DNA of 25,422 nt from Thermoplasmatota archaeon (GCA_029762535.1 JARVGK010000036.1:1-25422); one strand, 5' to 3'. Positions 4,905 to 23,021 are shown, counted from the first letter of the stretch. Notes: generated from the sequence alone by a model not told the origin. Program-made: numbers and translations.

Positions 4905-5045
4905 TCGATACGATGTGAGTTCGAGCACGAACGGGTCCACAGCGATCCCTGGACCGCGTCTATGTTAAATAGAACGAACCGTATCCCTTTTTCCGCGGGC
5001 CGATCGAAACCGAAGCACGATCGTCGACCCGCAGCCGGGGATAGC

Positions 5046-6005
5046 ATGAACGAGAACAGGAAGATCTGCCTTCTCATAGATGGTGACAACATATCGGCCA
5101 GGTACATCGTCCCGATAATCGATGAGATGAACAGGCACGGGGACCTCATGATCAAACGTATTTACGGGGACTGGACAACGAGCGAGATGAAGCAGTGGAA
5201 GGACATACTTTCCCGTTACGCGATAAGACCAATTCAGCAGTTCAGGACCGGGCCCAACGCCACGGACAACGCCCTCATCATGGACGCCCTGGAGGTCACC
5301 TACACGAACAGGAACATCGACACCTTCGCCATCGCCTCCTCCGACTCCGACTTCTACGGCCTGTTCATGAGGCTGCGGGAGCACGGTTATTATGTGATGG
5401 GCATGGGATCGAAGGATTCGAACGAGCTTTTGACCAAATCCGCGAACGATTTCATCTACCTCGAGAACCTCCTGCCCAAGGAAGAACCAAAACAGGCCCA
5501 GAGGAAGAGAACGGAGAAGGCCAAGGAAGGGGATGAGCTGCGGGATATCATAGAGGACACGTGCAGGAAGATCGACGCGGAAGAGAACGAATGGATACAT
5601 CTTTCCTATTTCGGTGAGATACTAAAGAAGAACCATCCGGATTTCGACCCCAGGTCCTACGGCCACAAGCAGCTGCTGACCATAATCCGCTCGTATCCCG
5701 ACCTCCTGGAGATCTCCACCGGGGAGTTGGACAAGACATATCTCGTACGAATACAAAGAGGAGTGGCCGGGGATGAGGACAGCAGGACGGGGACGGTCAT
5801 CCGGTTCGGGCCCTATTACGGATTCATCCGGTCCGACGAAGGCGATTACTATTTCCACGTCACGAACCTCAAGGACCCCGAAAGCTCAAAGCATGTCAGA
5901 GCCGGGACCAAGGTGGCCTTCAAGGTGTTCAGGAAACCGGACCCCACATCGACCTCGGGGGAGGAGAAGAACGGCAAGGCCTCGGAGGTCGAGCTGTTGC
6001 GATGA
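5046..6005 (+). CDS. NYN-domain RNase with OST-HTH/LOTUS and C-terminal cold-shock domains
   Basis: LLIDGDN, RIYGDW, NATDNALIMDA, SSDSDF (NYN); GEILKKNHPDFDPRSYGHKQL (LOTUS); YGFI...YFHVTNL (cold-shock RNP motifs). Confidence 0.9.
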   Translation: MNENRKICLLIDGDNISARYIVPIIDEMNRHGDLMIKRIYGDWTTSEMKQWKDILSRYAIRPIQQFRTGPNATDNALIMDALEVTYTNRNIDTFAIASSDSDFYGLFMRLREHGYYVMGMGSKDSNELLTKSANDFIYLENLLPKEEPKQAQRKRTEKAKEGDELRDIIEDTCRKIDAEENEWIHLSYFGEILKKNHPDFDPRSYGHKQLLTIIRSYPDLLEISTGELDKTYLVRIQRGVAGDEDSRTGTVIRFGPYYGFIRSDEGDYYFHVTNLKDPESSKHVRAGTKVAFKVFRKPDPTSTSGEEKNGKASEVELLR

Positions 6006-6754: not shown

Positions 6755-8260
6755 ATGAAGGACGGCGCCAGGGTCATCATCCTCGGGATCGACGCCCTCA
6801 ACTTCGGAGTGCTCGACCCGCTCATCGATGAAGGGGCCATGCCCAATTTCAAAAAGTTGAGGGAAAGCTCGGCCCATTCCGTCATGAACTCGATAATACC
6901 CTCGGTCACGGGACCCGCCTGGACGTCCATTAACACAGGAAAGAATCCCGGCAAGCACGGAATATTCGATTTCGTCCGGGTCGTGGACGGCGCTGTGAAG
7001 GTGAACTCCCGCTCCGACATCGATTCGGAGACGTTCATGGAACTGCTCTCGGGCATGGGCAAGCGCTGCATAACGGTAGGGGTACCCTACACATATCCCC
7101 CCGGTCCGCGTTTCAAAGGCATAGCGGTATCGGATTTTCTCTATCCGGATGTATCGATAACCCCCGAGGATAAGAATGCTTACATAGAGGATTACAAGTC
7201 CCTCGAGGACGCCGTCCACCTGGAGGGCATGGACCTCCTCGACGACCTGCTGGATGTTCAGAAGGGGCAGATAAATTCTGGTAAGGCCCTCTTCGAGAAG
7301 GAGGGATGGGACCTGTTCTTCTTCTACATGCCCGTCATCGATCACTTCTTCCACAAGTTCTTCGGGGAGATAGGGGGCGCGTCCGATGCCTGGAAGAAAG
7401 GGAAGGGACTGTTCATCGAGCTCGACTCCTTCCTGGGATGGGTGCTCGAGCGCCTCGATGACCGCTCCTTTCTCATGATCATATCGGACCACGGCTTCAG
7501 GATGTACGATGGAACGGTCAATCTCAACCGCATCCTCGAATCCTGGGGATACATGAAGAGGTCCGTCTCCTACAGCAAAGGAAAGAAAGCCTCGTCCCGC
7601 GGGTTGGGCGCATACCTGGCGAGGTTCGTCAGGCTGCCTGTCATATTCCCAGTGTTGAAGTTCTTCTACTCCCTGTTCAGAAAGGCGACCAACGCCGCGG
7701 GAAGCGATCTGGGCATAGGCTACGAGGAGAGGATCGACTTCCTCAGGTCTGCCGCTTTCACCCCCACCAAGGAGTCCATGGGCATATACATCAACGATAG
7801 CCAGATGGAGAAGGGACAGTCCAGGGACGATCTCTTGAACAGGCTCCGCACCCTGGAACATGAGGGGGAGAAGGTCTTCGACAGGGTGGTCCGAAGAGAG
7901 GACATCTACTCGGGGCCCCACTTAGATGAAGCGCCCGATCATCTCTTCATTTCGGAGAGGTTCATGTTCGCGGCCAATATTTTCGGCAGGGACCATTTCG
8001 GGCCGGGGGAGGCATATCACGACATGGACGCCGTCTTCTTACTGAAGGGACCATCCGTTCGTCCCGGCAGCCTTCCCGGTCGGCCGGAGCTGGTCGATGT
8101 AGCGCCCACCGTCCTCTCGCTTTTCGGGATCGATCCCCCGTCGGATATGGACGGGCGCATATTGCATGAAGCGATGATGACCGTAAAGAAGGAGCGCAGG
8201 GGCTCCGAGATAGATCGGATCAGGTCGGCCGCCAGGAAGTTCGGTTCCCGTCCGCTGTGA
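6755..8260 (+). CDS. Alkaline-phosphatase-superfamily (type I phosphodiesterase/nucleotide pyrophosphatase-like) protein
   Basis: ILGIDA, PSVTGPAWTSINTGKNPGKHG (Thr nucleophile position, no sulfatase CxPxR), DHFFH, SDHG, terminal YH...DVAPT. No signal peptide. Confidence 0.9.
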   Translation: MKDGARVIILGIDALNFGVLDPLIDEGAMPNFKKLRESSAHSVMNSIIPSVTGPAWTSINTGKNPGKHGIFDFVRVVDGAVKVNSRSDIDSETFMELLSGMGKRCITVGVPYTYPPGPRFKGIAVSDFLYPDVSITPEDKNAYIEDYKSLEDAVHLEGMDLLDDLLDVQKGQINSGKALFEKEGWDLFFFYMPVIDHFFHKFFGEIGGASDAWKKGKGLFIELDSFLGWVLERLDDRSFLMIISDHGFRMYDGTVNLNRILESWGYMKRSVSYSKGKKASSRGLGAYLARFVRLPVIFPVLKFFYSLFRKATNAAGSDLGIGYEERIDFLRSAAFTPTKESMGIYINDSQMEKGQSRDDLLNRLRTLEHEGEKVFDRVVRREDIYSGPHLDEAPDHLFISERFMFAANIFGRDHFGPGEAYHDMDAVFLLKGPSVRPGSLPGRPELVDVAPTVLSLFGIDPPSDMDGRILHEAMMTVKKERRGSEIDRIRSAARKFGSRPL

Positions 8261-8285: not shown

Positions 8286-8498
8286 TCACTCGAGATATCC
8301 CAGGGCTCTGAGCCTCTCCTTGACCTTCTCCTGGTCCTCGTCGGACATGTCCTCGCCCTCGTCCTCCTCCATGGAGGAGAGCACTTCATCCAGGACGTAA
8401 TTGACGTAGTCCTCCACCGAAGTGAACCCCGTGCTCTTGAGCCTCTCCTTTATCCTGTCGTGTATCCTCTTGTCGATCCTTATCCCGACCTTTTCCAT
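8286..8498 (-). CDS. CopG/RHH protein with an acidic linker and RLRALGYLE tail (paralog 1)
   Basis: KVGIRIDKRIHDRIK...GFTSVEDYVNYVL RHH pattern; GAGGTGG RBS; ATG one base after the sulfotransferase stop. Confidence 0.85.
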   Translation of the reverse strand: MEKVGIRIDKRIHDRIKERLKSTGFTSVEDYVNYVLDEVLSSMEEDEGEDMSDEDQEKVKERLRALGYLE

Positions 8499-8499
8499 T

Positions 8500-9075
8500 T
8501 CAACCACCTCTGTTCCTGTAAAGCGATAGATCGATCGCGTCCCTCATCGAGTCCGCATCTATGTCCCCGTCGAAGAGGTCCCTGATCTCCTCGAAGCTCT
8601 GGTCGGGGTCGGATAGCAGCTCGTTGTAATTGATATAGGCCACCCTCATGTTCTCCGATGAGTTCACGAGCCCCTTGAGGTTCTTGAGATAGGTCCGATA
8701 CAACCTTATCAGCTCATCATCGGGTATGACGTCTGGATCCTCGCCCCTCCTTATCATCATCTTCTTCTGGGACGATACGATCTCGTCGAGGTCCCTCATC
8801 ATGAACACGACCCTGTACTCGAAGCCGGATGGAAGGTGCTTCATCAACTCGCCCAGGACCTTCACCGCCCTGCCCCTGGCCTCCGGCAGCCAACCTTGGT
8901 CCCCGGGCAGCTTCTTCACCCTCTCGAACTCGTAATATCCTTTGGGATTGTCCACATCGGCGGTCCTGACATCATCCTTGAGGGGGGCGATCCCCCCCTT
9001 ATCGAGCATGCTCATCATCAAGGACGTTCCCGACCTGGGAAGGCCTGTCACCACCGTTATGTAATCCCTGCCCAT
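8500..9075 (-). CDS. PAPS-dependent sulfotransferase family protein
   Basis: 5'-PSB loop GLPRSGTS, NPKGYYE, 3'-PB motif MMRDLDEIVSS, terminal YNELL. Confidence 0.9.
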   Translation of the reverse strand: MGRDYITVVTGLPRSGTSLMMSMLDKGGIAPLKDDVRTADVDNPKGYYEFERVKKLPGDQGWLPEARGRAVKVLGELMKHLPSGFEYRVVFMMRDLDEIVSSQKKMMIRRGEDPDVIPDDELIRLYRTYLKNLKGLVNSSENMRVAYINYNELLSDPDQSFEEIRDLFDGDIDADSMRDAIDLSLYRNRGG

Positions 9076-9085
9076 AGATCATCAC

Positions 9086-9619
9086 TCATTCCATCAATCC
9101 GAGCTGTTTCACCTTTGATATGATCGCATCGACCTCCTGCTCGAGCGTCATCTCGTGGGTGCGCAGGACGAGGTCCGGCTTCAAGGGCTCCTCGTAAACT
9201 CCATCGTAGCCGGTGAGGTTCGTGATCTCGCCCTTGATTGCCTTGGCATAAAGGCCCTTTGGATCCCTCTTTATCCTTACCTCTTGCGTGGTCTCGAGAT
9301 AGACCTCCATGAATTCGCCGATCTCCTCCCGGGCGAAATCCCTGACGGCCCTGTAAGGGGATATGAGCGATACCACGTTCGGGACGCCGTGCTTGGTCAG
9401 GAGCCGGGCGTGATTGATAACTACCCTGTTGTGCATCTCCCTGGCCTCTTTCGAGAAACCTATGTCCGGATACAGCTGTTTTCTCACCGTATCCCCGTCG
9501 AAGACCTCTATCGGGAGGCCCATATCGGAGAATCTCCCTTTCAGGCCCTCGGCCAGGTAGCTCTTTCCGGCCCCGCTGGGCCCCGTCAACCATATCGTGA
9601 ATCCTTTTCCGTCGCACAT
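9086..9619 (-). CDS. cysC: Adenylyl-sulfate (APS) kinase
   Basis: IWLTGPSGAGKS, DGD, SLISPY, RDPKGLY, TGYDGVYEEP. Confidence 0.96.
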   Translation of the reverse strand: MCDGKGFTIWLTGPSGAGKSYLAEGLKGRFSDMGLPIEVFDGDTVRKQLYPDIGFSKEAREMHNRVVINHARLLTKHGVPNVVSLISPYRAVRDFAREEIGEFMEVYLETTQEVRIKRDPKGLYAKAIKGEITNLTGYDGVYEEPLKPDLVLRTHEMTLEQEVDAIISKVKQLGLME

Positions 9620-10567
9620 CTAATTGCCTCCGTTCATCCTGTATATCTCCTTGAACATCAGATCCCTCAATTCCTCCACCCTTTCTCGACCGTGCACCAC
9701 ACCGACGACGTCGTCCTTGCCACCGGCGTTGAAGCCCATCGCCTTCAATCTCCTTATCAGACCGCCCATGTCCATCGTGGACGGGTCCCGGATCCTGAGG
9801 TAGGTCTGCGCCCTTCCGTTGAAATCCCGGTTGATGGCCAGCGCCGCGTCGCAGCCCTCTTTGGAGACCGCCTTTCGGGCGAGCTTGCTGATTATATTGA
9901 ACCGGTGCTCGAAATCCAGGACCATCACCCTGCCGTGCATGATGCCCGCGTCGAAAACGTCGCGCATCGCATCGCGTATGCGTTCCACATTGGCGTTGAG
10001 CCCTGGGTCCTCGAGAAGGCGGTCGATGTCGTCCAGAGCGCGTACCGATGCCTCCACGGAATCCTTGTCCCCGACCACGTAACTGGAGTCCAGAAGCCTG
10101 ACCGCTCTCTGGAATTCCTCCGGATCGCGGCCCGAGGATGCGAACGCTCTTTTAAGCAATGGGTGGTCGAGCGCCTTTATACCCACATCGCCGAATGCTC
10201 CCAGAACGGATAGATCATCCCATGAGGAGTAGGTCTCCGAGACGACGGTGCTGCAGGAGGGATAGTCTGCCTGGTTGGCGCCATCTTTCACCGGATTGAC
10301 CTGACGCACCCCCGGGATCTGATCCTGGGGCTGGTGATGGTCGATGAAGGTTATGTCCGCGCCCGGCAGGTCCAGGCCCTTGGTTATGTTGAGGTCGAGG
10401 ACGAATATCGGCCCCTTTTCGTTCCTCATCGCCGTAATCATCCCTTCATCGAACTCGAACTCTCCTATCTCCGGGGTCATGTTAATGAAATGCTCGGGCT
10501 TGAATATCCGGACGATCTTCGCCGCCGAGCATATGCCATCCGTGTCCCAGTGATGGATGATGAGCAT
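9620..10567 (-). CDS. DHH-family phosphoesterase, probable PAP (3'-phosphoadenosine 5'-phosphate) phosphatase
   Basis: HHWDTDG, LDL, IDHH and C-terminal AGGK (DHHA1); lies between sat and cysC. Confidence 0.85.
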   Translation of the reverse strand: MLIIHHWDTDGICSAAKIVRIFKPEHFINMTPEIGEFEFDEGMITAMRNEKGPIFVLDLNITKGLDLPGADITFIDHHQPQDQIPGVRQVNPVKDGANQADYPSCSTVVSETYSSWDDLSVLGAFGDVGIKALDHPLLKRAFASSGRDPEEFQRAVRLLDSSYVVGDKDSVEASVRALDDIDRLLEDPGLNANVERIRDAMRDVFDAGIMHGRVMVLDFEHRFNIISKLARKAVSKEGCDAALAINRDFNGRAQTYLRIRDPSTMDMGGLIRRLKAMGFNAGGKDDVVGVVHGRERVEELRDLMFKEIYRMNGGN

Positions 10568-10571
10568 GCTT

Positions 10572-11717
10572 TCACTCCACGAAGGGGTTCTCGAAGGAGC
10601 GCAAGGCGTCGAAGACCTCCTTCCTCATGTGATGCGGTTTCGGGACCTCGCCCGTTTTGAGCATCTCCCTCATCTTGGTCCCGGAAAGGGAGTCGTGATG
10701 CTCCTTGGGGTGGGGGCATATCTTCGCATTGACGATGTTCCCGCACTTATGGCAGTAGAAGAAAGCCTGGAAGGCCATGGGTTCCATGCCTAGATCGGGG
10801 AACTGCTTGAATATCTCCTGCGCTTCATAGGGCCCGTAATAGTTACCGACACCTGCATGGTCCCTTCCGATAATGATATGCGTGCAGCCGAAGTTCTTCC
10901 GCATGATGGCGTGATGTATGGCCTCCTTGGGGCCCGCGTACTTCATCTCGTAGCGGAGGATGGACATGTGCGTGATCTCCTTGGGGAAGTAATGCTTGAT
11001 CAGCTCCTCGTAGGTCTTGAGTATCACGTCATCCCTGAAATCGCCTGATTTCTTCTTCCCTATGACCGGGTTTATGAACAAACCGTCCACGAAGGTCGCC
11101 GCGGTCTTCTGCAGGAACTCGTGGCCGACGTGGGAGACGTTCCTAGTCTGGAACGCGACAATGGTCTTCCAGCCCCTCTCGTTGAAAAGGACCCTCGTTT
11201 CGTGAGGGGTCAGGTAATGGTCCGGGAAAGGCGCATCCATTTCGGCGATCTGCTCCAGCTCCCCTCCGATCAGGGTATCCCCCATCTCCATCACGCGCTT
11301 GACGCCTGGATGGGCGGGATCCTCGGTCCCGAACACGGACCGGGCATAACCGGCCTTGTCGTATGTGTATATGTCCTCCACATACATCCTCGCTATCGGC
11401 TTACCCCTCGAGAGCAGGATCACGGAATCCCCCTCCTCGAAATCGATGGACCCCCTGTCCATGTCGAGCACCGATGGGATCGTCCAGGGGGTGTCGTCGG
11501 GGAGCCTCATATCCACCAGCACCGACTGCAGTTCGTCGGACATCATGAAACCCGACAGCGGGGAGTAAACCCCATCGGCAATGGACATGACGTCAACAGC
11601 GTTAACGTCCCTTATCTCGATCTTCGGGTACTCCCCGATCTCCTCGAGTACCCTGTCCCTGACCTTTTCGCCAAGCTTCCTTCTGACCAGTTTTCCACCG
11701 TGCGGCCTGTTGACCAT
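10572..11717 (-). CDS. sat: Sulfate adenylyltransferase (ATP sulfurylase, homo-oligomeric Sat type)
   Basis: PHGGKL, FQTRNVSHVGH, YAGPKEA, GRDHAG, Zn site CHKC...CPH, SGTKMR. Confidence 0.97.
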   Translation of the reverse strand: MVNRPHGGKLVRRKLGEKVRDRVLEEIGEYPKIEIRDVNAVDVMSIADGVYSPLSGFMMSDELQSVLVDMRLPDDTPWTIPSVLDMDRGSIDFEEGDSVILLSRGKPIARMYVEDIYTYDKAGYARSVFGTEDPAHPGVKRVMEMGDTLIGGELEQIAEMDAPFPDHYLTPHETRVLFNERGWKTIVAFQTRNVSHVGHEFLQKTAATFVDGLFINPVIGKKKSGDFRDDVILKTYEELIKHYFPKEITHMSILRYEMKYAGPKEAIHHAIMRKNFGCTHIIIGRDHAGVGNYYGPYEAQEIFKQFPDLGMEPMAFQAFFYCHKCGNIVNAKICPHPKEHHDSLSGTKMREMLKTGEVPKPHHMRKEVFDALRSFENPFVE

Positions 11718-11733
11718 CGTATCACTCCGTGTA

Positions 11734-11961
11734 TCAATCCAGATAGCCCAGTGCCCTGAGCCTGTCCTTCACCCGGTCCTCCTCCTCCTTGGAGAAGACC
11801 TCTTCCGATGTTCCCTCCTCGAGAGATGCCAGGACCTCCCTGAGAACGTAGGTAACGTAATCGGAGACCGATGTGAAGCCCGTCCCCTCTATCCTCTTCT
11901 TTATGTTCCTGTACAGCGGGGTCGGTATCGAAACCGTCGTATGCTTCCTTTGCTCGGGCAT
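11734..11961 (-). CDS. CopG/RHH protein with an acidic linker and RLRALGYLD tail (paralog 2)
   Basis: TTVSIPTPLYRNIK...GFTSVSDYVTYVLRE; GAGGTGG RBS upstream of ATG 11961. Confidence 0.88.
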   Translation of the reverse strand: MPEQRKHTTVSIPTPLYRNIKKRIEGTGFTSVSDYVTYVLREVLASLEEGTSEEVFSKEEEDRVKDRLRALGYLD

Positions 11962-11980: not shown

Positions 11981-12027
11981 TGAATGCGTCTTAATGACAT
12001 TTAATGCGATTGCATGAAGATATATAA
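11981..12027 (-). promoter_or_regulatory. Promoter of the RHH-sat-DHH-cysC-sulfotransferase-RHH operon with a candidate operator array
   Basis: TTATATA box (12021-12027, minus strand); near-palindrome TAATGC-GATT-GCATGA at 12002-12017; AATG/CATG repeated every 10 bp. Confidence 0.65.
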
Positions 12028-12044
12028 TATTTATCCCGGTGCTG

Positions 12045-12827
12045 TCAGTTGATAAGGAACACCGAACAGGGCCTCTTCCTCGCGAAGCCGGACCTGAGGT
12101 GGAAATATCCCTTCTTGCCCATGCGTCCTATGACTATCAGGTCGAGCTTATTCTCGTTCACGATCTCTCGTATGGAGCTCTCGGGCCTTTCCTTGATCAC
12201 CTGCTCGAACCTGATCCTGCGCGAGGAAACGACCCCCTCGAGCGCCTCCTCGGTGTTTTCCGCCTTCGGATCCGCTATGAAATAGGACCTCAAGGACGCG
12301 TTCGTCGCGGACCTGAGCGCCTTGGCCGCATCGATCAGCCTATCGCTTTGCCGGGTATCCGCCAGGAACAGAGCGATCCTTTTGATCGGGCGGTCGTGTC
12401 TCTCTATCCAAACAGGGACGGTCGAACGGTCCATTACCCGATATTTCAACAGGTCGTAGGATCCGTATTCCATCATCAAGGCGTCGGCTTCGAACTCATC
12501 GACCGCCCCCAGTATCGTCTCGGGGATCGGTCCCTTCCTGACGACGAACTCTTCTGGTCTGGAGCCCAGGATCTCGGCCACATTTTTCTTGATGATCCTC
12601 TTTGCGACCTGCTCCTGGGTCCTGACCATATTTCTTTGGAACATCTCCTTGTCATGCTCCGTGAGCACGTGCATCACCTGCTCCCCGACGTCATCATACA
12701 GCGTATCATCGATGAAATACGAGATGATCAGCCTACTGCCTATCATGGCCGAGAGCTCGGCGGACCTCTTGAGCGCCATTTCGGGCAGACCTTCCTTCGT
12801 GACGGGGACCAGCAACCTCTTGAACAT
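12045..12827 (-). CDS. Tandem universal stress protein (USP)
   Basis: MFKRLLVPV start, two USP-like halves, DLIVIGRMG, CSVFLIN end; TGATG overlap with the DASS stop. Confidence 0.88.
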   Translation of the reverse strand: MFKRLLVPVTKEGLPEMALKRSAELSAMIGSRLIISYFIDDTLYDDVGEQVMHVLTEHDKEMFQRNMVRTQEQVAKRIIKKNVAEILGSRPEEFVVRKGPIPETILGAVDEFEADALMMEYGSYDLLKYRVMDRSTVPVWIERHDRPIKRIALFLADTRQSDRLIDAAKALRSATNASLRSYFIADPKAENTEEALEGVVSSRRIRFEQVIKERPESSIREIVNENKLDLIVIGRMGKKGYFHLRSGFARKRPCSVFLIN

Positions 12828-14209
12828 CACCAAACACCTATCCATTTCCAGTAAGTATAGACCACGACGAGCATTATTGCAACTGTAACCGCATTGGCGA
12901 TCATCCCTGCCTTGAGCATGTCCCTGGGACGGAAATAGCCCGAGGAATAGGATATGAGGTTCCCGGGTGTCGAGAACAGGAACATGAACGCGAGCCCTCC
13001 GGAGAGACCTACCAGCATCGAGCCCATCTCCGGGGGCAGACCTGATGCGATGAACACCGCGAAGCCGATGGGAAGCAGTATGGACACCGCGGCCGTGTTC
13101 GACATGAACTCCGTCAGGACCTTTGTCAGGACGATCATCAGCAGTATCGAGAGCAGGGCGCTCCCGGATGTCAACAGGATGACCTTGTCCGCAAGCCAGA
13201 GAGCGGCCCCCGAATCGGCGAGATGTATGCCCATGGATATAGCGCCGCCGTACAGAAGGATTATCCCCCAGGGTATCCTCTCCTCCACTTCCTTCCATCT
13301 CATCCCCCCTGCGATGAATATCATGATCGCCCCGATCAAAGCGATGATGGACAGTTCGACATCGATGAGCTGGGGTAGGAATATGAACATGGCTATTATC
13401 AAGGCGAGGACCGCGATGATCATCTTCTTATTCCAACCGGGTGATGGTATCTGCTTCAGCTCATCGCCTATGACGCTCCTGGCCCTCTCCACATTCGCCC
13501 TCTCCGGGGGAAAGACGAGTATCAGGACCATCCAGACAGCGAACAGAGATAGTATCACAATAGGCAGGGAAAGCGTCATCCATCTCAGGAAGTCCACCTC
13601 GATCCCCTCGAGCCTGAGGAACGCTATCGTCAGAGGGTTTCGCGCTCCCCCCAGGGGCGTTCCCAGGCTTCCGATGGTGCAGCCGTAGGCCGCCCCTATC
13701 ATCATCCCCTTGGCGAGATTGCTCTTCAGGGGCACCAGCCCCATTCCTAATATCGTATAGGTCAGGACAGGGACGATCAGTATGATGACGCCATGCTCGG
13801 GCATTATGAACGAGAGCAGGGCCCCGGAGACCATTGTCCCGAGGACCATGAGCCTCGGCGAGGATCCCATGGCCTTGAGGAAGACGAGGGAGACCCATCT
13901 GTGCAGATCTGTCCTCTCCACGGAGGAAGCGATTATGAACGCGCCTATGAGGAAGAACACCGCGGAGTTGCCGAAGGATTGGAAGGTGGACCTCACCGTT
14001 GTCGCACCCAGAAGCAAGGGGAGTATAAGAACGACGATGCCCGCAAGGCCAAGGGGGATGGGCTGTAGAATGAAGACGGCAGCGGCGAATACGAGAACGC
14101 CGAACATCGCCTGGCCCTCATATGACAGACCGTCGGGCCTGGGAAGGACGAGAACGATGAGGAGCAGCAGGATCGGAAGGGCGTACTTCGCTGCTTTCCT
14201 CATATCCAT
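12827..14209 (-). CDS. DASS/SLC13 sodium:sulfate (anion) symporter
   Basis: FFLIGAFIIA, GSLGTPLGGARNP, IPWGIILLYGG, LTEFMSNTAA, STPGNL; start at MDMRK after GGTGG. Confidence 0.93.
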   Translation of the reverse strand: MDMRKAAKYALPILLLLIVLVLPRPDGLSYEGQAMFGVLVFAAAVFILQPIPLGLAGIVVLILPLLLGATTVRSTFQSFGNSAVFFLIGAFIIASSVERTDLHRWVSLVFLKAMGSSPRLMVLGTMVSGALLSFIMPEHGVIILIVPVLTYTILGMGLVPLKSNLAKGMMIGAAYGCTIGSLGTPLGGARNPLTIAFLRLEGIEVDFLRWMTLSLPIVILSLFAVWMVLILVFPPERANVERARSVIGDELKQIPSPGWNKKMIIAVLALIIAMFIFLPQLIDVELSIIALIGAIMIFIAGGMRWKEVEERIPWGIILLYGGAISMGIHLADSGAALWLADKVILLTSGSALLSILLMIVLTKVLTEFMSNTAAVSILLPIGFAVFIASGLPPEMGSMLVGLSGGLAFMFLFSTPGNLISYSSGYFRPRDMLKAGMIANAVTVAIMLVVVYTYWKWIGVW

Positions 14210-14338
14210 CAAAACCACCCGATCCCAGGTTCCCTGTGTATGCAGGCCGATTTCCCTTCCTCGGATTTGAAGGTTGCGCTCTCCAGGTCGGTTCTCATTA
14301 TCGTCATGTCGAACAGATAGAGTTCCAATCGTTAATAA

Positions 14339-14367
14339 TATATAATGCCATTGCATTACATTACATT
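14339..14367. promoter_or_regulatory. Divergent DASS/sbp promoter with a candidate operator
   Basis: TATATAA at 14339-14345; perfect-arm palindrome TAATGC-CATT-GCATTA at 14343-14358; CATT four times at 5-bp spacing, ending just before the sbp ATG. Confidence 0.65.
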
Positions 14368-15360
14368 ATGACAAAAAGATACCTTATGCCCCTGGCAATG
14401 ATCCTGCTGCTGCCAATGATGTCGGGATGCCTCGGCGGTGACGATGACTCGGGCACCATAGTGCTCTATGGCTTCTCCGTCAAGGGAGAGCTTATCGACG
14501 ACATGGTGATCCCGGCCTTCCGGGAGAGGTACAAGGCCGAGACCGGGGAGGACATCAAGTTCCAGACGGTCTATGCCGGGTCTGGGACGGTGACCAAGCA
14601 GGTCATCGTCGGTGCCCCGGCCGAGGTCATGATACTCTCGACCGAATGGGACGCCCTCCAGCTGCGCGATGCCGGGCTCGTAACGACGGATTGGAGGTCC
14701 TACCCACATGAGGGGACCTTCTCCACATCCCCCTGGGTGATATTGACGAGGCCGGGCAACCCCAAAGGCATCCATGACTTCAGCGACCTCGCCCGTTCGG
14801 ATGTGCGCCTCGTATCCGCGGATCCCATCACCTCAGGAGGCGCCCAATGGTCCATATTCGCGATATACGGGTCGGAGCTGAGGAGGACCTCCGCGATCGA
14901 GGGATCCCCCAACGAGACTCGGGCGGTCGAACTATTGGATGATATCGTCGATAATGTGGACAGCTGGCAGGAATCCGCGAGAAAGGCGCTCTCCCAGTTC
15001 GTCTTCGGATACGGGGACGCCTTCATAACGTACGAGAACGAAGCGCTTCTGGGGATGGCGCAGGGGGAGAAGTTCGAGATCATCTATCCTCATTCCACTA
15101 TACTCTCGGAGCACAAGGCGATAGTGGTTGACGAGAACGTCGATGAGAAGGAGAGGGGGGCGGTGGAGGCGTTCATGGAATACCTGTTCTCGGACGAGGT
15201 GCAGAATATGCTATCCGTTTACGATTTCAGGTCACCGGATGAGAGCTACAACGACGGCTTCGAACGAATTGAAGACCCGTTCACCGTCGAATATCTGGGC
15301 GGCTGGGAGATCGCCAAACCGGAGATAATAGACGGAATATACGCACCGATGCGGAGGTGA
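14368..15360 (+). CDS. sbp: Sulfate ABC transporter substrate-binding lipoprotein
   Basis: MSGCLG lipobox, GSG, GNPKGIHDFSDL, DPITSGGAQW, GDAFITYENEA; probably a leaderless start. Confidence 0.92.
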   Translation: MTKRYLMPLAMILLLPMMSGCLGGDDDSGTIVLYGFSVKGELIDDMVIPAFRERYKAETGEDIKFQTVYAGSGTVTKQVIVGAPAEVMILSTEWDALQLRDAGLVTTDWRSYPHEGTFSTSPWVILTRPGNPKGIHDFSDLARSDVRLVSADPITSGGAQWSIFAIYGSELRRTSAIEGSPNETRAVELLDDIVDNVDSWQESARKALSQFVFGYGDAFITYENEALLGMAQGEKFEIIYPHSTILSEHKAIVVDENVDEKERGAVEAFMEYLFSDEVQNMLSVYDFRSPDESYNDGFERIEDPFTVEYLGGWEIAKPEIIDGIYAPMRR

Positions 15361-17412: not shown

Positions 17413-20400
17413 TCACTCCTCGATGACAGGCTCTGTGGGATAGACCCTGAGATAAGGCCGCCTCCGCCTCAGGGCCATGAACATGACAAATATACTGAAG
17501 AACAAGATGACCGCAAGGGAGATCGCAAGATAAAGGGGCCATTTCGCCGGCGAAGGAGGATCCCTCTCGCGAACATCAACGCTCTCCCAAGGACCGGTAA
17601 CACCATAACCCTCGATCCCCACATAGAACACATACCTGCCCGCATCCTCGAAGGTTATATTGTGATACCTGCCAGGTGATGAATAGATCACAGATCCTTC
17701 GAACCTGACCTCAAGGACAAGGGAAAGAAAACCGGGATAATCATAATACCACACGTTCACGGCCACCGTGTCGCCCACCCGATGATCGGATGGCCAGGGA
17801 TCGAGATCGATCCGGATACCGATCCCCGTCAGGTTCAGACCCACTACGACCTCCATCTCATATGTGCCGGATGCACCGCCCACTACGGATACCGTGATGT
17901 TGAAAAAATATCTACCAGCATCCCCGATCACAGGTTCGAGGATCAATCGGCCTCCGCTAATGGAAGCCCATCCCGGGGCGGATACGAGAGAATAAGATAA
18001 TGTCCCGTTCTTCGCGTAATCAGTCAGGATCGAAATGACGATAAGATCGTTCTCACGGAGGTTGATGGACTTCTCGTTCAACAGAGCAGGGGGATCGCCC
18101 ATTCGTACATCGATGTGCAGCGAAATATCGATATGTTCGCCGCCGGGATCGAAGGCGCGCAGAACAAGAGAATGTATGCCTACATGATCATCCCTGGGAG
18201 AAAACCTCAGCATGTCATCCTCGATGGATATCCAGACATACTTGCTCTCCACTAAAGAGTAGGAGATCCTCTCCCCTTCGGGATCCGCAACGCCCGGATC
18301 GAACGTAAACACGTCCCCGCACTCGACCATCAGATCGATCCTCTCCGGTCCCGTAGGAGGTTGGTTCCGGACCATCACGTCAAGAGGAAATGAATAAAGG
18401 GCATAGGACCCGTTGTTATCCGATACATTGATGTCAACCCATTGACGGCCAACATCGGTACTTACCGGATTTATCAGAAGAAGACCCTCATCGTCTATGG
18501 AGCATAGGCCTTTGCCAGACCAGGACGCGTTGAAGGAGAACGTATTCTGGTTCGGATCGTAAACCGTTATGAGGTATTCGAAAGGCTCGCCCACATACGC
18601 CACGCTCGCGTTCACCTCCAATATCACGGGAGGGACGTTGAACGGTATGATCCTTATGAAGACCTCAATGAAGCTGACGGAACCGTTATTATCCGAGGCC
18701 GAGATAACGACGCTCCAGACACCAGTATGATCCGCCCGGGCACGGAAAAAGAGCATGTTCCCGTAAAGAACCGAGACGTTGAACGGGGCGTTCTTGCTGT
18801 GAACACCCAGCTCGACCGGATCCCCGTCCGGATCGAAATAGGTCAGGAAATACCTTGTGGGCTCATCCGGATACGCCACGATCTCCTCGACAGGATCTAT
18901 CACCGGATTCCGGTTCACTCCGATCCTGAACTCGGTCCAGTTACGGGTCCCGTTGTTGTCGTTCGCGGTGATGTTGAAGGTTGTGTATCCCTCGTACTCA
19001 TCGGTTCCAAGAAAAGAGAAGGCTCCAGTCAGGGGATCCAATTCGAAGAATACATCCCTCGATGCTTTTATCTCGAAGGTGGGAGTGTCACCGTCGGGAT
19101 CGTATGCCTCGAAGGTGATGTTCAGCCGCTCGCCGGAGTTGATCCTGTACAAATCCTGAACAGACCCTATCTGCACCCTCCTGTTCCAGGGTTGACCCCA
19201 TGGTACGATGAGGGGCAAGTGATCGATAGAATCGTGATCTATGATCACAGGATTATCCACGATCCCGTTCCCGTCCCAATCCGTGTAGTTCTCGATCCCT
19301 GTCCAGTAATTGCCCCAATCAGGATCGTTGAAGGAGTTGGATCCGTTATCGATCACATGGATCGAGTTGTCCATGAAGGAATTCTTGAATATTCTCGTCG
19401 TTTTCGTATCGTTCAGCTTCATCGCGATCCCGTTATCGATAAAGACGTTATCGTTGATCCTCGAATCCGAGGATCCCTCCATCCTCAATGCGATGTCGTT
19501 ATCCTCGAAAACATTCCCATAAATCCTTGTCCTGGTGGACTTTAAGTCAAATATTGAGCACATTGATCCTTGAAAAAATGTAGAATGTATTTGTAATTGA
19601 TCTGATTCTTTAGAATATACCCCCAATGAGATATTATCAAGTGATTGGTTCTTTATTATCATACCTTTTGTCTTGATTGTATGTATAGCATATGTAGAGT
19701 TTCTGATATGATTTCCATCCAATACCATCAAGATCCCCAATTCAATATGAAATCCATAGTTCACATTGGATACGATATTGTTATTGAAGTTTGACCTCCC
19801 ACGATAAAAATAAAATCCATAGTTCACTTCATTTATTGAGTTATTGAAAATATCTGCATATACTTCTCCTGTATGTCCTGCTACGTTCAGATCAATATGG
19901 AAAGCTGTATCGGCTCTAAAAATTGTATTGTTGTAGATCGATATATTACGATCCTTCCATAACGAGTCCGAATTTGGTCTTTTAAGGATGAAACCTGATC
20001 TTGCATCCATGATTTTATTGGATGAAAGTACTAATTGGGTGAAATATGTGATATCCACGCATATCTTTGATGAGATAATAATATTATTTTCAATCTCTAA
20101 AAAGTAATTTGAAATCCCAGCTATTGCCGTGTCAGATATATTATTGAATGTATTTCTAACTATTCTTGTACGATAAGTTGGTATTCCGTGAATACCGTAT
20201 GTACATGATATGAATGTATTGTTTGTAATATATACTTTATCTATGTATTTATTTTCTGTTGATATCTTACTTTTTCCGATCATTATTGCACTGTTAGAAA
20301 TATTTTCAAAATGTGAATTATTTATCCTGTGATTATAATATATTGAATTAATGATATTGTTGAACAGATGTATCCCATTATTAGAACAATTATGAAAATT

Positions 20401-20940
20401 CGAGGATTCTATTAATGTGTTATTGCATTGATTAATATGTATTCCTGTTACGATACCGTTCATAATAGTATCATACATGAAGAAATCATCGGATTCTACC
20501 ACTACACCGGATTGGGAAAAATCTCCGTAACCTGCATAATATATTTGGGAATGTAAGATTCTCAATAAAGAGCCATGTCTTGAAATAATATTATAATTAT
20601 AACCATTATTGTTAGAATAATTGCCTGTACTATTCAAAGTCAGGATCGAGTTGTTGAGGAGCAAAGATCCTCCGTTTTGAATTTCTATCTTTATGGATCC
20701 ATCGTATGTTGTGTTGAATATAACGGTTGCATTGTCGAAAATATAGAATTCTCCCTCACCTATCGTGATATTCTCGATGACGTAATACGTTCTCGAAGTG
20801 ATGTTGGTATAGTTGTAAGATGAGCTCTCAGCATTAGATCGGACTATAATATCAGGATCGGCTGATGATTGATCGGGAAATATCGATATCAAAAGAAGTA
20901 AAAACACCATCGATACCGAAGCCCGATGTTTATAAACCAT
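17413..20940 (-). CDS. Large surface glycoprotein/adhesin: parallel beta-helix (NosD/CASH-like), tandem cadherin/Ig-like repeats and a C-terminal anchor
   Basis: Signal peptide; N/I-rich beta-helix repeats ending GNYW...DHLPL; repeated DPDGD / ASDNNG / NxPP motifs; TM helix followed by RRRR; many N-x-S/T sequons. Confidence 0.88.
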   Translation of the reverse strand: MVYKHRASVSMVFLLLLISIFPDQSSADPDIIVRSNAESSSYNYTNITSRTYYVIENITIGEGEFYIFDNATVIFNTTYDGSIKIEIQNGGSLLLNNSILTLNSTGNYSNNNGYNYNIISRHGSLLRILHSQIYYAGYGDFSQSGVVVESDDFFMYDTIMNGIVTGIHINQCNNTLIESSNFHNCSNNGIHLFNNIINSIYYNHRINNSHFENISNSAIMIGKSKISTENKYIDKVYITNNTFISCTYGIHGIPTYRTRIVRNTFNNISDTAIAGISNYFLEIENNIIISSKICVDITYFTQLVLSSNKIMDARSGFILKRPNSDSLWKDRNISIYNNTIFRADTAFHIDLNVAGHTGEVYADIFNNSINEVNYGFYFYRGRSNFNNNIVSNVNYGFHIELGILMVLDGNHIRNSTYAIHTIKTKGMIIKNQSLDNISLGVYSKESDQLQIHSTFFQGSMCSIFDLKSTRTRIYGNVFEDNDIALRMEGSSDSRINDNVFIDNGIAMKLNDTKTTRIFKNSFMDNSIHVIDNGSNSFNDPDWGNYWTGIENYTDWDGNGIVDNPVIIDHDSIDHLPLIVPWGQPWNRRVQIGSVQDLYRINSGERLNITFEAYDPDGDTPTFEIKASRDVFFELDPLTGAFSFLGTDEYEGYTTFNITANDNNGTRNWTEFRIGVNRNPVIDPVEEIVAYPDEPTRYFLTYFDPDGDPVELGVHSKNAPFNVSVLYGNMLFFRARADHTGVWSVVISASDNNGSVSFIEVFIRIIPFNVPPVILEVNASVAYVGEPFEYLITVYDPNQNTFSFNASWSGKGLCSIDDEGLLLINPVSTDVGRQWVDINVSDNNGSYALYSFPLDVMVRNQPPTGPERIDLMVECGDVFTFDPGVADPEGERISYSLVESKYVWISIEDDMLRFSPRDDHVGIHSLVLRAFDPGGEHIDISLHIDVRMGDPPALLNEKSINLRENDLIVISILTDYAKNGTLSYSLVSAPGWASISGGRLILEPVIGDAGRYFFNITVSVVGGASGTYEMEVVVGLNLTGIGIRIDLDPWPSDHRVGDTVAVNVWYYDYPGFLSLVLEVRFEGSVIYSSPGRYHNITFEDAGRYVFYVGIEGYGVTGPWESVDVRERDPPSPAKWPLYLAISLAVILFFSIFVMFMALRRRRPYLRVYPTEPVIEE

Positions 20941-20970
20941 AATGATCCCTATATTATCACTCCGTTATAT

Positions 20971-22638
20971 CTATCTTGGCGATGGAAGGAGCCCCAACCG
21001 GATGCAGTCCTCGATGACATGCCACCAGTATAACCAATCCATTGGAGTATTGTGAAGCCGGATATCATAGATATTCTCCTTCACATAATCCGGAAAATAT
21101 ATAGCAATACCTCGGGTTTTGGTCAGATTCACACAATGCTTTTCGTATTCGATCAATCTGTTCGCTGGGTTCGAATTCCAAAGAACGCTCATGATCTGTC
21201 TTGCCGAGGTTCGAATGTTCGAAAAGAATTGATCGGGAACCGGAGGGTCCTGACTCTGATATCCCCAATAATTCAGGAAATAATAGTAATCGATTTGAAG
21301 TCTGGGATATGTCGTATCATCAGGATACCTATCCGAGGATACGTTGACAGCACACCACATCGAGGTGTTATACCATGATGATTGAGCTCCGCTCAGACCA
21401 CCCGATAGATTCTTGTTGAAGCTGGTGATATTGTCGAAAAGATCTTGTGTCATATGTGAAGCGTTCAGGACGGAATAGGTCATGCTTATGTTTCCGAACT
21501 GAGGGGTCCAATCAAGGACATTGAATGGAGGGTTCTCTATCCCATCGCTCGTCCAATATTCGAGATCATCTATGAACTCTTGTGCGAGCCTCTGTGGATC
21601 CCAATCCGGATTCGATTCAAGAGTTGAAAGAGTATCATCATCCTGGTTGCCAGATGAGACCATCCAATTCTCGGATGCGAGGTGATAATCAGAGAACTCG
21701 AGGAACTTGAATCCGAATTCCAGATTCCCCATGAAACAGCTGTACAGGTTGACCAGATCCAACCGTTTCTCTACCGAATCGAAGAGGGATGAGAGGGTAT
21801 TCATCTCAGGAAGCGTGATAACATCAAGTTCGGTCGTTGTGTTGTTATTGTTCGGTCTGTAATCGTAACCAAATCCTTCCACTCCCAATCCATGTGACCT
21901 GATGTATAGACAGTAATGATCGGATGGAAATGTGTCCATGCCCCAGTCCACGAATTCGAACAATGTATTCGGATCCGCCATGTTCGCCTCCCAGTTCGGG
22001 TTCCCGTTATCATCTGTCTCATTATGAACCCGGGGATCCCCCGATGGCCAATCGGTCACATCCCACAATGAGGATAGAATATCGTCTTTCATTCTGTCCC
22101 CACTTCCATTCCAGGTATCGGGATCCCATTGTTGAGCACTATCAGTTCCTACCAGGAACCTTCTAGTTGAAGTCGGTATTGGATCAACGATGAGGTGATT
22201 ATTCCTCATTTTATCCCAATGTCTGTCAGGGGTTTCCCCCCACAAAACATCGCTTCCATCGAATTGAACGACTATGTTGATGTTATCTGTACAACCAACC
22301 CAGCTCAATCTCTCAATGAACTCCCAGTATTCGAAGAGATTGCTTCCAGATGGATCTCCTGCTGGGGCATCATCTCCACATACATATACAAGAAATGTCC
22401 ATTCGATATCATTAGAATCAGGGCTTTCAGGATCCCAATTCAGGTTGAAGTCACGTTCGAACTCATCGGGCCTTCCATCGCCGTCTATGTCCAACTCGTT
22501 CTCGGATGCTTTTACCATATCGATAAATTCTATTACTTTGAATAAACCGATGGTAGAGGACACTATTAATATCGTCAATATGCCGATACAGATCATTTTC
22601 TTGATGATCAAATGAATGCTTCCCTTCTTTCCTATCAT
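20971..22638 (-). CDS. Secreted clostripain-family (C11) cysteine peptidase
   Basis: WTFLVYVCGD, NIVVQFDG, NMADPNTLFEFVDW, catalytic His in SHGLG and Cys in YSCFMG, ASE; N-terminal TM; alternative GTG start at 22647. Confidence 0.88.
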   Translation of the reverse strand: MIGKKGSIHLIIKKMICIGILTILIVSSTIGLFKVIEFIDMVKASENELDIDGDGRPDEFERDFNLNWDPESPDSNDIEWTFLVYVCGDDAPAGDPSGSNLFEYWEFIERLSWVGCTDNINIVVQFDGSDVLWGETPDRHWDKMRNNHLIVDPIPTSTRRFLVGTDSAQQWDPDTWNGSGDRMKDDILSSLWDVTDWPSGDPRVHNETDDNGNPNWEANMADPNTLFEFVDWGMDTFPSDHYCLYIRSHGLGVEGFGYDYRPNNNNTTTELDVITLPEMNTLSSLFDSVEKRLDLVNLYSCFMGNLEFGFKFLEFSDYHLASENWMVSSGNQDDDTLSTLESNPDWDPQRLAQEFIDDLEYWTSDGIENPPFNVLDWTPQFGNISMTYSVLNASHMTQDLFDNITSFNKNLSGGLSGAQSSWYNTSMWCAVNVSSDRYPDDTTYPRLQIDYYYFLNYWGYQSQDPPVPDQFFSNIRTSARQIMSVLWNSNPANRLIEYEKHCVNLTKTRGIAIYFPDYVKENIYDIRLHNTPMDWLYWWHVIEDCIRLGLLPSPR

Positions 22639-22790
22639 AGGCACCACTTCCTAATTAGACCGGATCGTATTTGACGGGATCGAATACATCCCCCCGGATG
22701 CACGCATTTCTTTGTTTTCGGCTCCGGTCAAGGGAATATAAGTCCAAATAATATATAAAACCACCGAAAAAAACCCCAAAAATAAATATA

Positions 22791-22815
22791 TATTATATTA
22801 TATTATATTATATTA
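22791..22815 (+). repeat. (TATTA)5 microsatellite within an AT-rich intergenic tract
   Basis: tattatattatattatattatatta read directly; flanking 22745-22845 is almost all A/T. Confidence 0.9.
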
Positions 22816-23021
22816 TAATAAATATAAAAACTATATAGAAAAAGAAGGAGGGGATCCCAACCCCCTGACTGGAACCATGAACATAATTAAACCCTCAAGA
22901 GATAGGATCTCGCGACATTGTATGAATATCACAGTCGGGGTTTTTCATAAAAGGGATCCCCCTCCAGGGGTGGGATCGCCTCTTCCACAACAGGTTAATT
23001 TTCATACCATCTATGAAAGCA

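Follow-up and report, generated by a model that had tools for sequence, protein, structure and literature searches.

Putative ribbon-helix-helix regulators and a portable C-terminal tail at a sulfate-activation operon of a Thermoplasmatota archaeon

Introduction

What controls sulfate activation in archaea, and what becomes of the activated sulfate, are questions raised together by a compact operon on a 25,422-nucleotide stretch of DNA from a Thermoplasmatota archaeon (GCA_029762535.1, JARVGK010000036.1:1-25422), the whole of which is referred to below as the window. Between positions 8286 and 11961, on the minus strand, genes for making 3'-phosphoadenosine-5'-phosphosulfate (PAPS) are enclosed by two genes for small putative ribbon-helix-helix (RHH) proteins, here called RHH-A and RHH-B, which both end in the same short segment, the LGY tail. 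It is not evident what PAPS is used for in these archaea, which have no reductase and often no known sulfotransferase, and nothing was known before about the control of the sulfate-activation cluster. An earlier note on the window had read RHH-A and RHH-B as paralogs bracketing the operon, and had proposed that their tail is either a docking peptide supplied in trans to an adjacent AlkP-superfamily enzyme or to the sulfotransferase of the operon, or a tyrosine acceptor whose sulfation reports PAPS supply to the repressor.

Clusters of this kind have been described. In Pyrococcus yayanosii, a copG gene (PYCH_17520) is followed by genes for ATP sulfurylase, a DHH-family 3'-phosphoadenosine-5'-phosphate (pAp) phosphatase, a type I phosphodiesterase and adenosine-5'-phosphosulfate (APS) kinase, an arrangement that also occurs in other archaea, and this source calls copG no more than a putative transcription factor or regulator (Jin et al. 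2021, PMC8268124). The same cluster in Thermococcus onnurineus corresponds to TON_1704-1707 (PMC4463584). A search by term found no mention of the tail or of an operator in Jin et al. (PMC8268124), the terms 'CopG' and 'ribbon' do not occur in Jespersen 2023 (PMC10322725), and our literature search found no paper uniting RHH proteins, ATP sulfurylase and archaea. As annotations, both the regulators and the cluster were already known; in the papers that could be searched we found no account of a phased operator, of a second paralog coupled to a sulfotransferase or of a portable tail, all of which are presented here.

Results

Two paralogous proteins at the ends of the operon

RHH-A, a canonical RHH-type putative regulator of 75 aa, is encoded by the first gene of the operon (11734-11961, minus strand), directly 5' of the ATP sulfurylase gene, and RHH-B, a divergent 70-aa paralog, by the last (8286-8498, minus strand), as the earlier note had said in describing a bracketed operon. 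RHH-B appears to be translationally coupled to the preceding sulfotransferase gene: its ATG lies 1 nt past the sulfotransferase stop codon TGA (8502-8500) and is preceded by GAGGTGG, with an alternative GTG start at 8507. The two proteins are identical at 35 of 66 residues (53%; BLASTP, E = 1e-22), and both contain the strings TGFTSVxDYVxYVLxEVLxS and VKxRLRALGYL[ED] that had been picked out in the note. Its finer observations also held, namely that the N-terminal strands differ (KVGIRI versus TTVSIP), that the linkers are acidic and that the adjacent AlkP protein has no such tail and ends as quoted there, in EIDRIRSAARKFGSRPL. The tails themselves, FSKEEEDRVKDRLRALGYLD in RHH-A (11737-11796, minus strand) and MSDEDQEKVKERLRALGYLE in RHH-B (8289-8348, minus strand), are the only open reading frame (ORF) ends in the 2.96-Mb genome at which LxxLGY is followed by zero to three residues in an RL[RK]xLGY context.

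A protein search returned 285 relatives of ~75 aa, annotated as CopG-family or RHH proteins where they are named at all, from Pyrococcus, Thermococcus, Methanocaldococcus, Archaeoglobus, Ferroglobus, Altiarchaeales and Thermoplasmatota. RHH-A is ~80% identical to the consensus of this family (Thermococci, Methanococci, Archaeoglobi and Thermoplasmatota), and VKERLRALGYL[DE] is invariant or nearly so among the 120 closest homologs. RHH-A thereby belongs to the published 'copG' family of the sulfate-activation cluster, a point missing from the earlier note. RHH-B represents a divergent subtype (K-V-x-I-x-I...YV[EN]YVLxEV) whose close kin occupy the same position as RHH-B at one further locus, after the DHH, APS kinase and sulfotransferase genes (L005), and adjoin a sulfotransferase gene both there and at L019. 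RHH-B differs from RHH-A in its presumed DNA-reading strand, and it probably travels with the small sulfotransferase. Among the variants of the family are an RHH protein with two tandem tails (P0130) and single-chain tandem RHH-RHH proteins (P0122, P0182 and P0216; loci L076-L078 and L081) that end in ...RRLESLGYL without the terminal acidic residue.

The RHH assignment is supported by structure prediction. An AlphaFold2 (AF2) model of RHH-B has an extended segment (residues 5-12), two helices (13-26 and 31-47), a disordered acidic linker and a tail helix (56-69), so that an N-terminal strand and two helices fall within ~45 residues; this is a monomer model, in which strand pairing is impossible. 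The tail helix is its most confident part, with a predicted local distance difference test (pLDDT) value of ~89. Almost all of the top 35 Foldseek matches to the model are RHH proteins, superposing at 1.0-2.0 Å over 38-41 residues, with none at E <= 0.001; they include ORF56 (1.6 Å over 41 residues), PutA (1.0 Å over 40) and NikR (1.0 Å over 38), as well as Arc, omega and ParD. A profile search of the PDB with the family gave NikR at E = 0.55 and nothing significant, and the tandem relative P0122 matches the Pfam model RHH_1 at 2.8e-6.

Phased hexamer arrays upstream of RHH-A-type genes

A candidate operator lies at the operon promoter. Upstream of RHH-A, between a TATA-like element (ATAAATATTATATA; 12021-12034, minus strand), read from the sequence and presumed to act as such, and the Shine-Dalgarno (SD) sequence GGTGG, which is placed 6 nt 5' of the ATG, four hexamers at a 10-bp phase occupy positions 11982-12017 (minus strand). 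Read from 12017 to 11982, this array is TCATGC-N4-GCATTA-N4-TCATTA-N4-GCATTC. The RHH-A start was placed at 11961 because the longer ORF, to 12000, begins within the array and because the relatives start at the M of MPEQRKHTT. When the window was scanned with a degenerate three-unit pattern derived from the operon array, it occurred only at 11982-12017 and at 14333-14368 (minus strand), against a chance expectation of 0.01. The second site is also a four-unit phased array, reading TAATGT-N4-TAATGC-N4-GCATTA-N4-TTATTA from 14368 to 14333, and is situated at the promoter of a Na+/sulfate symporter gene (12827-14209, minus strand, start approximate; PF00939, E = 6e-67), of which an upstream ATG (14356) falls within the array.

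When the upstream regions (110 nt) of RHH-A-type genes at 37 loci, from as many genomes, were aligned, they showed TAATTA-like hexamers one helical turn apart, again between a TATA-like element and the SD sequence. Hexamer pairs at 10 bp numbered 106, compared with 3.9 in shuffled sequences, and pairs at 20 bp numbered 67, compared with 3.3. Upstream of the nine loci scored as type B there was no comparable hexamer phasing. RHH-A, as an array of dimers of dimers, would most likely bind the four hexamers that lie 3' of the TATA box of its own operon and 5' of the start codon, and most likely also the similar array at the sulfate-symporter promoter, both promoters presumably being repressed.

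The LGY tail as a portable module

To follow the tail through the phylum of the window, 401 genomes were scanned with a DNA pattern for R-L-[RK]-x-L-G-Y-[LIVM]-[DE]-stop, with the reversed pattern as control. This gave 116 matches in 102 of the genomes, one of which (in G292) ends in TGG rather than a stop codon, and two matches for the control. Most of the 116 matches are in RHH proteins. The neighbours of the first 30 tail loci, taken unselected in listing order and all encoding ~75-aa RHH proteins, were ATP sulfurylase (Sat) in 20, CysD with CysN in five, a small sulfotransferase in three and unrelated or unidentified genes in two. Enrichment of the tail in sulfur-transfer loci, which the earlier note had set as a check, was thus borne out, with 28 of 30 carriers adjoining one of these genes. 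The RHH-A-type gene is directly upstream of sat in 20 of the 30 loci and of cysD-cysN in five more; its position is kept before two non-homologous ATP sulfurylases and is therefore tied to the function rather than to one gene. Members of the RHH-A family stand before cysD-cysN in place of sat at L015, L017, L023, L025, L034, L091 and L092, where CysD ends in ...MEDRKKEGYF.

Enzymes carrying the tail were seen among 20 further regions, picked for multiple or variant tail matches. Two adjacent tail-bearing PF01663 proteins are encoded in each of two genomes (L036 and L037), an AlkP fragment with the tail occurs in L051, and two tail-bearing sulfatases (PF00884) in L039, which confirms the statement in the note that AlkP-family proteins and sulfatases can end in this way. 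A small sulfotransferase with an LGY tail and no RHH domain (L053:2945-3583, from G315:C4) adjoins a family-2 glycosyltransferase gene. It is 35% identical to the sulfotransferase of the window over its full length, and after ...LYRNR it runs on into ...SKEDEDIIKERLRELGYLD, at the point where the window protein stops, at ...LYRNRGG, and is followed by RHH-B. RHH-A and RHH-B match the tails of the AlkP, sulfatase and sulfotransferase carriers column for column. The alignment, hydrophobic-[ST]-x-[ED]-[ED]-x-x-x-[VI]-x-x-R-L-[RK]-x-L-G-Y-[LIM]-[DE]-COOH, can be read as an acidic, amphipathic segment of ~20 residues that forms a helix with an N-cap box and a Gly C-cap, followed by Y-[LI]-[DE]-COOH. 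L-G-Y was the same in every carrier seen, but the acidic residue at the end is sometimes absent.

A profile of the tail retrieved 722 representative proteins at E <= 0.001, of which the best 150 are mostly small and RHH-like but also include AlkP fragments, a sulfatase, tandem RHH proteins and an RHH protein with two tails. A search for longer proteins sharing the tail region gave one weak match, the E-value scale of the database being too strict for 20 residues. Two kinds of match were discarded: P0168 (1083 aa, with eight tail-profile matches) is a peptidoglycan-binding-repeat protein and a false positive, and weak PG_binding_2 matches to the tail reflect a generic helix-LGY turn. Among 120 homologs (P0271-P0390) of one tail-bearing AlkP (L036:1137-2669), from haloarchaea, Chloroflexota and Thermoplasmatota, 69 end in ...RLxxLGYL[ED], with a mean net charge of -3.6 over the last 20 residues. 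Approximately 35 of the 120 have an alternative end, a basic helix (ExERI+xKIxxLKxxGKI) with a charge of +4.5, and the AlkP of the window is of this kind (8197-8257). APS kinase (CysC) ends resemble the tail (...KKAKELGYLP in Pyrococcus and ...SKVKQLGLME in the window), as do CysD ends (...RKKEGYF). Judged from these alignments, the LGY tail is a portable module common to RHH proteins and several enzyme families.

Similar ends are also found within a glycan cluster (L086), on a 57-aa ORF (4955-5128) and a 58-aa RHH-like ORF (9530-9706), which both end in ...L[QE]DLGY[RL], and on two sulfatase-fold ORFs and a 306-aa protein. Many AlkP homologs sit among glycosyltransferase and polysaccharide clusters (L086-L088 and L093-L096).

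A model of the tail on the adjacent AlkP-family enzyme

The AlkP-superfamily enzyme of the window (6755-8260, plus strand; PF01663, E = 1e-28) has no LGY tail and is convergent with RHH-B, with a stop-to-stop spacing of 25 nt. A complex was modelled between ORF residues 36-536 of this protein, aligned with 120 homologs, and the 32 C-terminal residues of RHH-A, aligned with 19 other tails. It scored 0.66, the best of three controls scored 0.00, and the runs agreed in at least 74% of contacts, with a partner pLDDT of at least 62. In calibration, 58 of 80 solved complexes attained this score, as did two of 110 mismatched pairs; these counts are only rough because author-made alignments were used. 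The modelled tail helix rests in a groove on AlkP residues 73-87 and 128-132, and places tail residues 27-32 at the catalytic centre, with contacts between tail Tyr30 and Thr52, Leu28 and His197, and Gly29 and His200. In alignment, Thr52 corresponds to the nucleophilic Thr of phosphonoacetate hydrolase (PhnA), the residue mutated from T to A in 3t02, and His197 is invariant in the AlkP family (121 homologs). The proposal in the earlier note that the tail is a docking peptide supplied in trans to AlkP is supported by this difference in scores, to the extent that a model can support binding; it does not show binding.

The genomic association between the tail and this fold is partial. PF01663 is present in 69 of 101 tail-positive and in 113 of 300 tail-negative genomes, related genomes not being independent in this comparison. 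A tail-less AlkP gene convergent with an LGY-tailed small RHH-like gene recurs at the distant glycan-cluster locus L086. Two other ideas about the receptor were rejected. The AlkP fold as a universal receptor of the tail is ruled out by the near-complete, tail-bearing genomes G065 and G008, which have neither PF01663 nor PF00884. Pairing of the acidic tail with the basic C-terminal helix of tail-less AlkPs, in the manner of an E/K coil, was discarded on the grounds that the modelled interface contains no residue beyond 408 and that an LGY-tailed RHH gene is nearby in only three of eight tail-less AlkP loci.

Gene content of the operon and related clusters

Pfam analysis gave the order RHH-A, Sat, DHH, CysC, Sulfotransfer_3 and RHH-B for the tightly packed genes of the operon. 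Between the two RHH genes, all on the minus strand, are those for ATP sulfurylase (Sat; 10572-11717; PF14306 and PF01747, E = 1e-89), a DHH phosphoesterase (9620-10567; PF01368) that is probably a pAp phosphatase, its position being orthologous to that of the P. yayanosii enzyme (PMC8268124), the APS kinase CysC (9086-9619; PF01583, E = 9e-48) and a small, 191-aa sulfotransferase (8500-9075; PF13469, E = 3e-10). For the sulfotransferase, a sequence search found no solved relative, and its Atlas neighbours are unnamed small PF13469 proteins. A Usp-domain gene and the Na+/sulfate symporter gene lie upstream of the operon on the same strand. Elsewhere in the window, GC content falls from ~0.55 to 0.32-0.45 at approximately 19000-23000, far under the rest.

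Compared with the P. yayanosii-type cluster, the window has the same beginning: RHH-A is about 60-80% identical to its Thermococcales, Methanocaldococcus and Archaeoglobus counterparts, and the RHH gene is first, directly before ATP sulfurylase, and then come DHH and APS kinase (the same order as in L001-L003). In Pyrococcus sp. NA2 and Methanocaldococcus sp. 28A, a family member directly precedes sat and the DHH gene, with AlkP, CysC and TauE encoded in the same cluster. The differences concern the end of the operon and its surroundings. The P. yayanosii-type cluster has a type I phosphodiesterase gene (PF01663) between the DHH gene and cysC, whereas the AlkP gene of the window is outside the operon on the opposite strand, and its product is merely 25% identical to the AlkP of that cluster. 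The window has no TauE and a Na+/sulfate symporter in its place, and, unlike the P. yayanosii-type cluster, its operon closes with a small sulfotransferase and a second, divergent RHH protein.

Other arrangements include RHH-A-(Sat or CysDN)-DHH-CysC-sulfotransferase(-symporter), in G125 and G240, and sulfotransferase-RHH-A-Sat-DHH-CysC-symporter, in G065. In Archaeoglobus sulfaticallidus (L003:6367-7773), an IS605 OrfB gene takes the place of sat between the RHH gene and the DHH gene, followed by AlkP and CysC. A tail-less AlkP is encoded within the operon in Thermococci, Methanococci and Archaeoglobi (L001-L003), versus a small PF13469 sulfotransferase in Thermoplasmatota (L089, L091, L092 and the window). 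These two enzymes may fill the same PAPS-consuming role. Canonical clusters (Pyrococcus, Methanocaldococcus and Archaeoglobus) mostly contain no recognisable sulfotransferase, and the tail is still invariant in them (our loci; Jin et al. 2021, PMC8268124).

Discussion

The paralogy of RHH-A and RHH-B, their family membership, the conserved operator-like arrays and the portability of the tail with its range of carriers are observed directly. The explanation that we favour for them has about an even chance of being right as a whole. It reads RHH-A and RHH-B as paralogous RHH transcription factors of an archaeal PAPS-making and sulfation operon, with RHH-A acting on the phased arrays, and the tail as a protein-protein docking peptide rather than a DNA-binding part. 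The most likely receptor in the window would be the adjacent tail-less AlkP-family enzyme, with the helix in its groove and L-G-Y-L-D over the Thr52/His197 centre, as in the complex model. Binding of the tail would then make the level of free repressor depend on the state of the AlkP enzyme. A broader version of this idea, which we regard as possible but doubtful, would make the LGY tail a peptide aimed at the active site of AlkP-fold enzymes in general. Its G-Y-L-[DE]-COOH end would block the catalytic Thr/metal centre or undergo processing in it, so that RHH repressors, sulfotransferases and sulfate-activating carriers would be recruited to, or titrated by, an AlkP-fold enzyme.

Several observations weigh against docking on AlkP or against the RHH assignment on which the explanation depends. 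Pfam RHH models match neither RHH-A nor RHH-B. No PF01663 match was found in 32 of 101 tail-positive genomes, and G065 (97% complete) and G008 (94% complete), with neither PF01663 nor PF00884, retain an intact RHH-A tail. The AlkP of the window is a divergent member that departs from the family consensus at many of the predicted interface positions, and the predicted interface is just slightly better conserved than the remainder of the protein. The low frequency of LGY-tailed RHH genes near tail-less AlkP genes, noted above, points the same way. When a natural AlkP-tail fusion was modelled as an AF2 monomer, the pLDDT of the tail fell from 74 to 56, with the last four residues below 50; this permits no conclusion on docking in cis, because a monomer model cannot show docking across subunits. 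Finally, the tail also ends unrelated folds, such as the sulfotransferase, and similar ends occur on CysC and CysD; self-association, or a third partner shared by all of these proteins, would account for this no less well. In view of the complex model, AlkP is a candidate partner of the tail in this locus, neither proven nor general.

Two of the alternatives are serious rivals to docking on AlkP. The tail could instead be a self-association helix, as in the Mnt repressor, that joins adjacent RHH dimers on the 10-bp-phased array for cooperative repression, and that drives oligomerisation or co-assembly when carried by enzymes, without any dedicated receptor. The phasing of the four-unit arrays implies that several dimers would sit next to each other on a single face of the DNA. 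The tail helix, short and amphipathic with its hydrophobic residues spaced i, i+4 and i+7, is the highest-confidence part of the RHH-B model. Its retention in genomes without any AlkP-fold gene, its presence on unrelated folds and in tandem copies (P0130) and its undocked state in the AlkP-tail monomer model also agree with self-association. Against this, the helix spans only ~1.5 heptads, which is short for a stable bundle; its strictly C-terminal place and near-invariant G-Y-[LI]-[DE]-COOH point to recognition of the terminus by a pocket; and the complex model gives a specific site on AlkP, with controls at 0.00. We consider self-association plausible, though a minority prospect. It is rather unlikely that the tail binds another pathway component (CysC, the DHH pAp phosphatase or Sat/CysD), or a housekeeping protease or chaperone that reads a C-terminal tag, and that the AlkP model is a false positive. 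CysC and DHH are encoded in almost every cluster examined, unlike AlkP, CysC ends in a similar capped helix and CysD in ...RKKEGYF, and the two mismatched pairs that reached the mark in a calibration with author-made alignments leave room for such an error. A housekeeping receptor would, on the other hand, leave unexplained why the carriers are confined to sulfation and glycan loci.

The remaining proposal, the circuit of the earlier note, holds that the tail Tyr is sulfated from PAPS by the sulfotransferase of the operon and de-sulfated by AlkP, so that the activity of the repressor reports PAPS supply. Invariance of the Tyr in every carrier seen, the translational coupling of RHH-B to the sulfotransferase, the tail borne by a relative of that sulfotransferase, and the modelled position of the Tyr beside Thr52, the nucleophile of AlkP, which is the place expected for a Tyr-ester substrate, can all be cited for it. 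A residue needed for packing would equally explain the invariance, and some tail-bearing genomes are without any AlkP-fold 'eraser'. Relative to the Tyr, positions -4 and -6 of the tail are Arg or Lys and position -1 is Gly, a pattern unlike that of known Tyr-sulfation sites. We judge sulfation of the tail to be very improbable, and this writer/eraser/reader circuit stays speculation because the same tail is invariant in canonical clusters that have no recognisable sulfotransferase (PMC8268124).

What the locus offers for the bench is a candidate operator of four hexamers at a 10-bp phase, conserved across archaeal classes, together with a defined pair of putative regulators. It also suggests a concrete partner for a short C-terminal segment borne by hundreds of proteins in sulfation and glycan clusters, among them phosphatase-like enzymes, sulfatases and regulators, and docking in the AlkP active site, as modelled, is a new and directly testable lead. 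If the tail does dock there, this would be a new case of an enzyme serving as the sensor of a repressor, and would point to the uncharacterised AlkP-family enzymes as the hub of the pathway. An active-site-directed tail would amount to an undescribed enzyme-repressor sensing and assembly system in archaeal and bacterial sulfation pathways.

Precedents exist for the proposed coupling of a repressor to an enzyme. The C-terminal tail of CysE docks in the active site of CysK in the cysteine synthase complex, CymR-CysK is a repressor-enzyme complex of Bacillus, and GlnR with glutamine synthetase is a further pairing of repressor and enzyme. As in CysE/CysK and CymR-CysK, a few C-terminal residues are proposed to enter the active site of a sulfur-pathway enzyme and so to tie regulation to its occupancy, and as in CymR-CysK the partner of the repressor would be an enzyme, although in the window this is only proposed. 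The folds on both sides are unrelated to those of CysE/CysK, and the CysE motif is a terminal Ile, whereas the LGY tail is a 15-residue helix with G-Y-L-[DE]. In addition, the LGY tail, unlike that of CysE, is spread over several enzyme families, and its binding is a model prediction.

Among RHH proteins, close architectural parallels are the type II antitoxins ParD, RelB, CcdA and TacA, in which a flexible linker likewise joins an N-terminal RHH domain to a C-terminal helix for gripping a partner protein; RHH antitoxins are found among the Foldseek matches over 63-73 alignment columns. No toxin family was identified by Pfam among the RHH neighbours, which are instead Sat and the sulfotransferase or AlkP, and, unlike the antitoxins, the LGY family has a tail in common with enzymes and is conserved with one pathway across archaeal classes. 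The Mnt repressor of phage P22 combines an RHH domain with a C-terminal tetramerisation helix that forms a four-helix bundle. Mnt and the LGY-tailed proteins are alike in carrying a C-terminal helix after the RHH domain, and a single dimer would not fill the operators of either. The helix of Mnt is the longer one, whereas the LGY helix is short, has an invariant G-Y-L-[DE]-COOH end and is also carried by enzymes.

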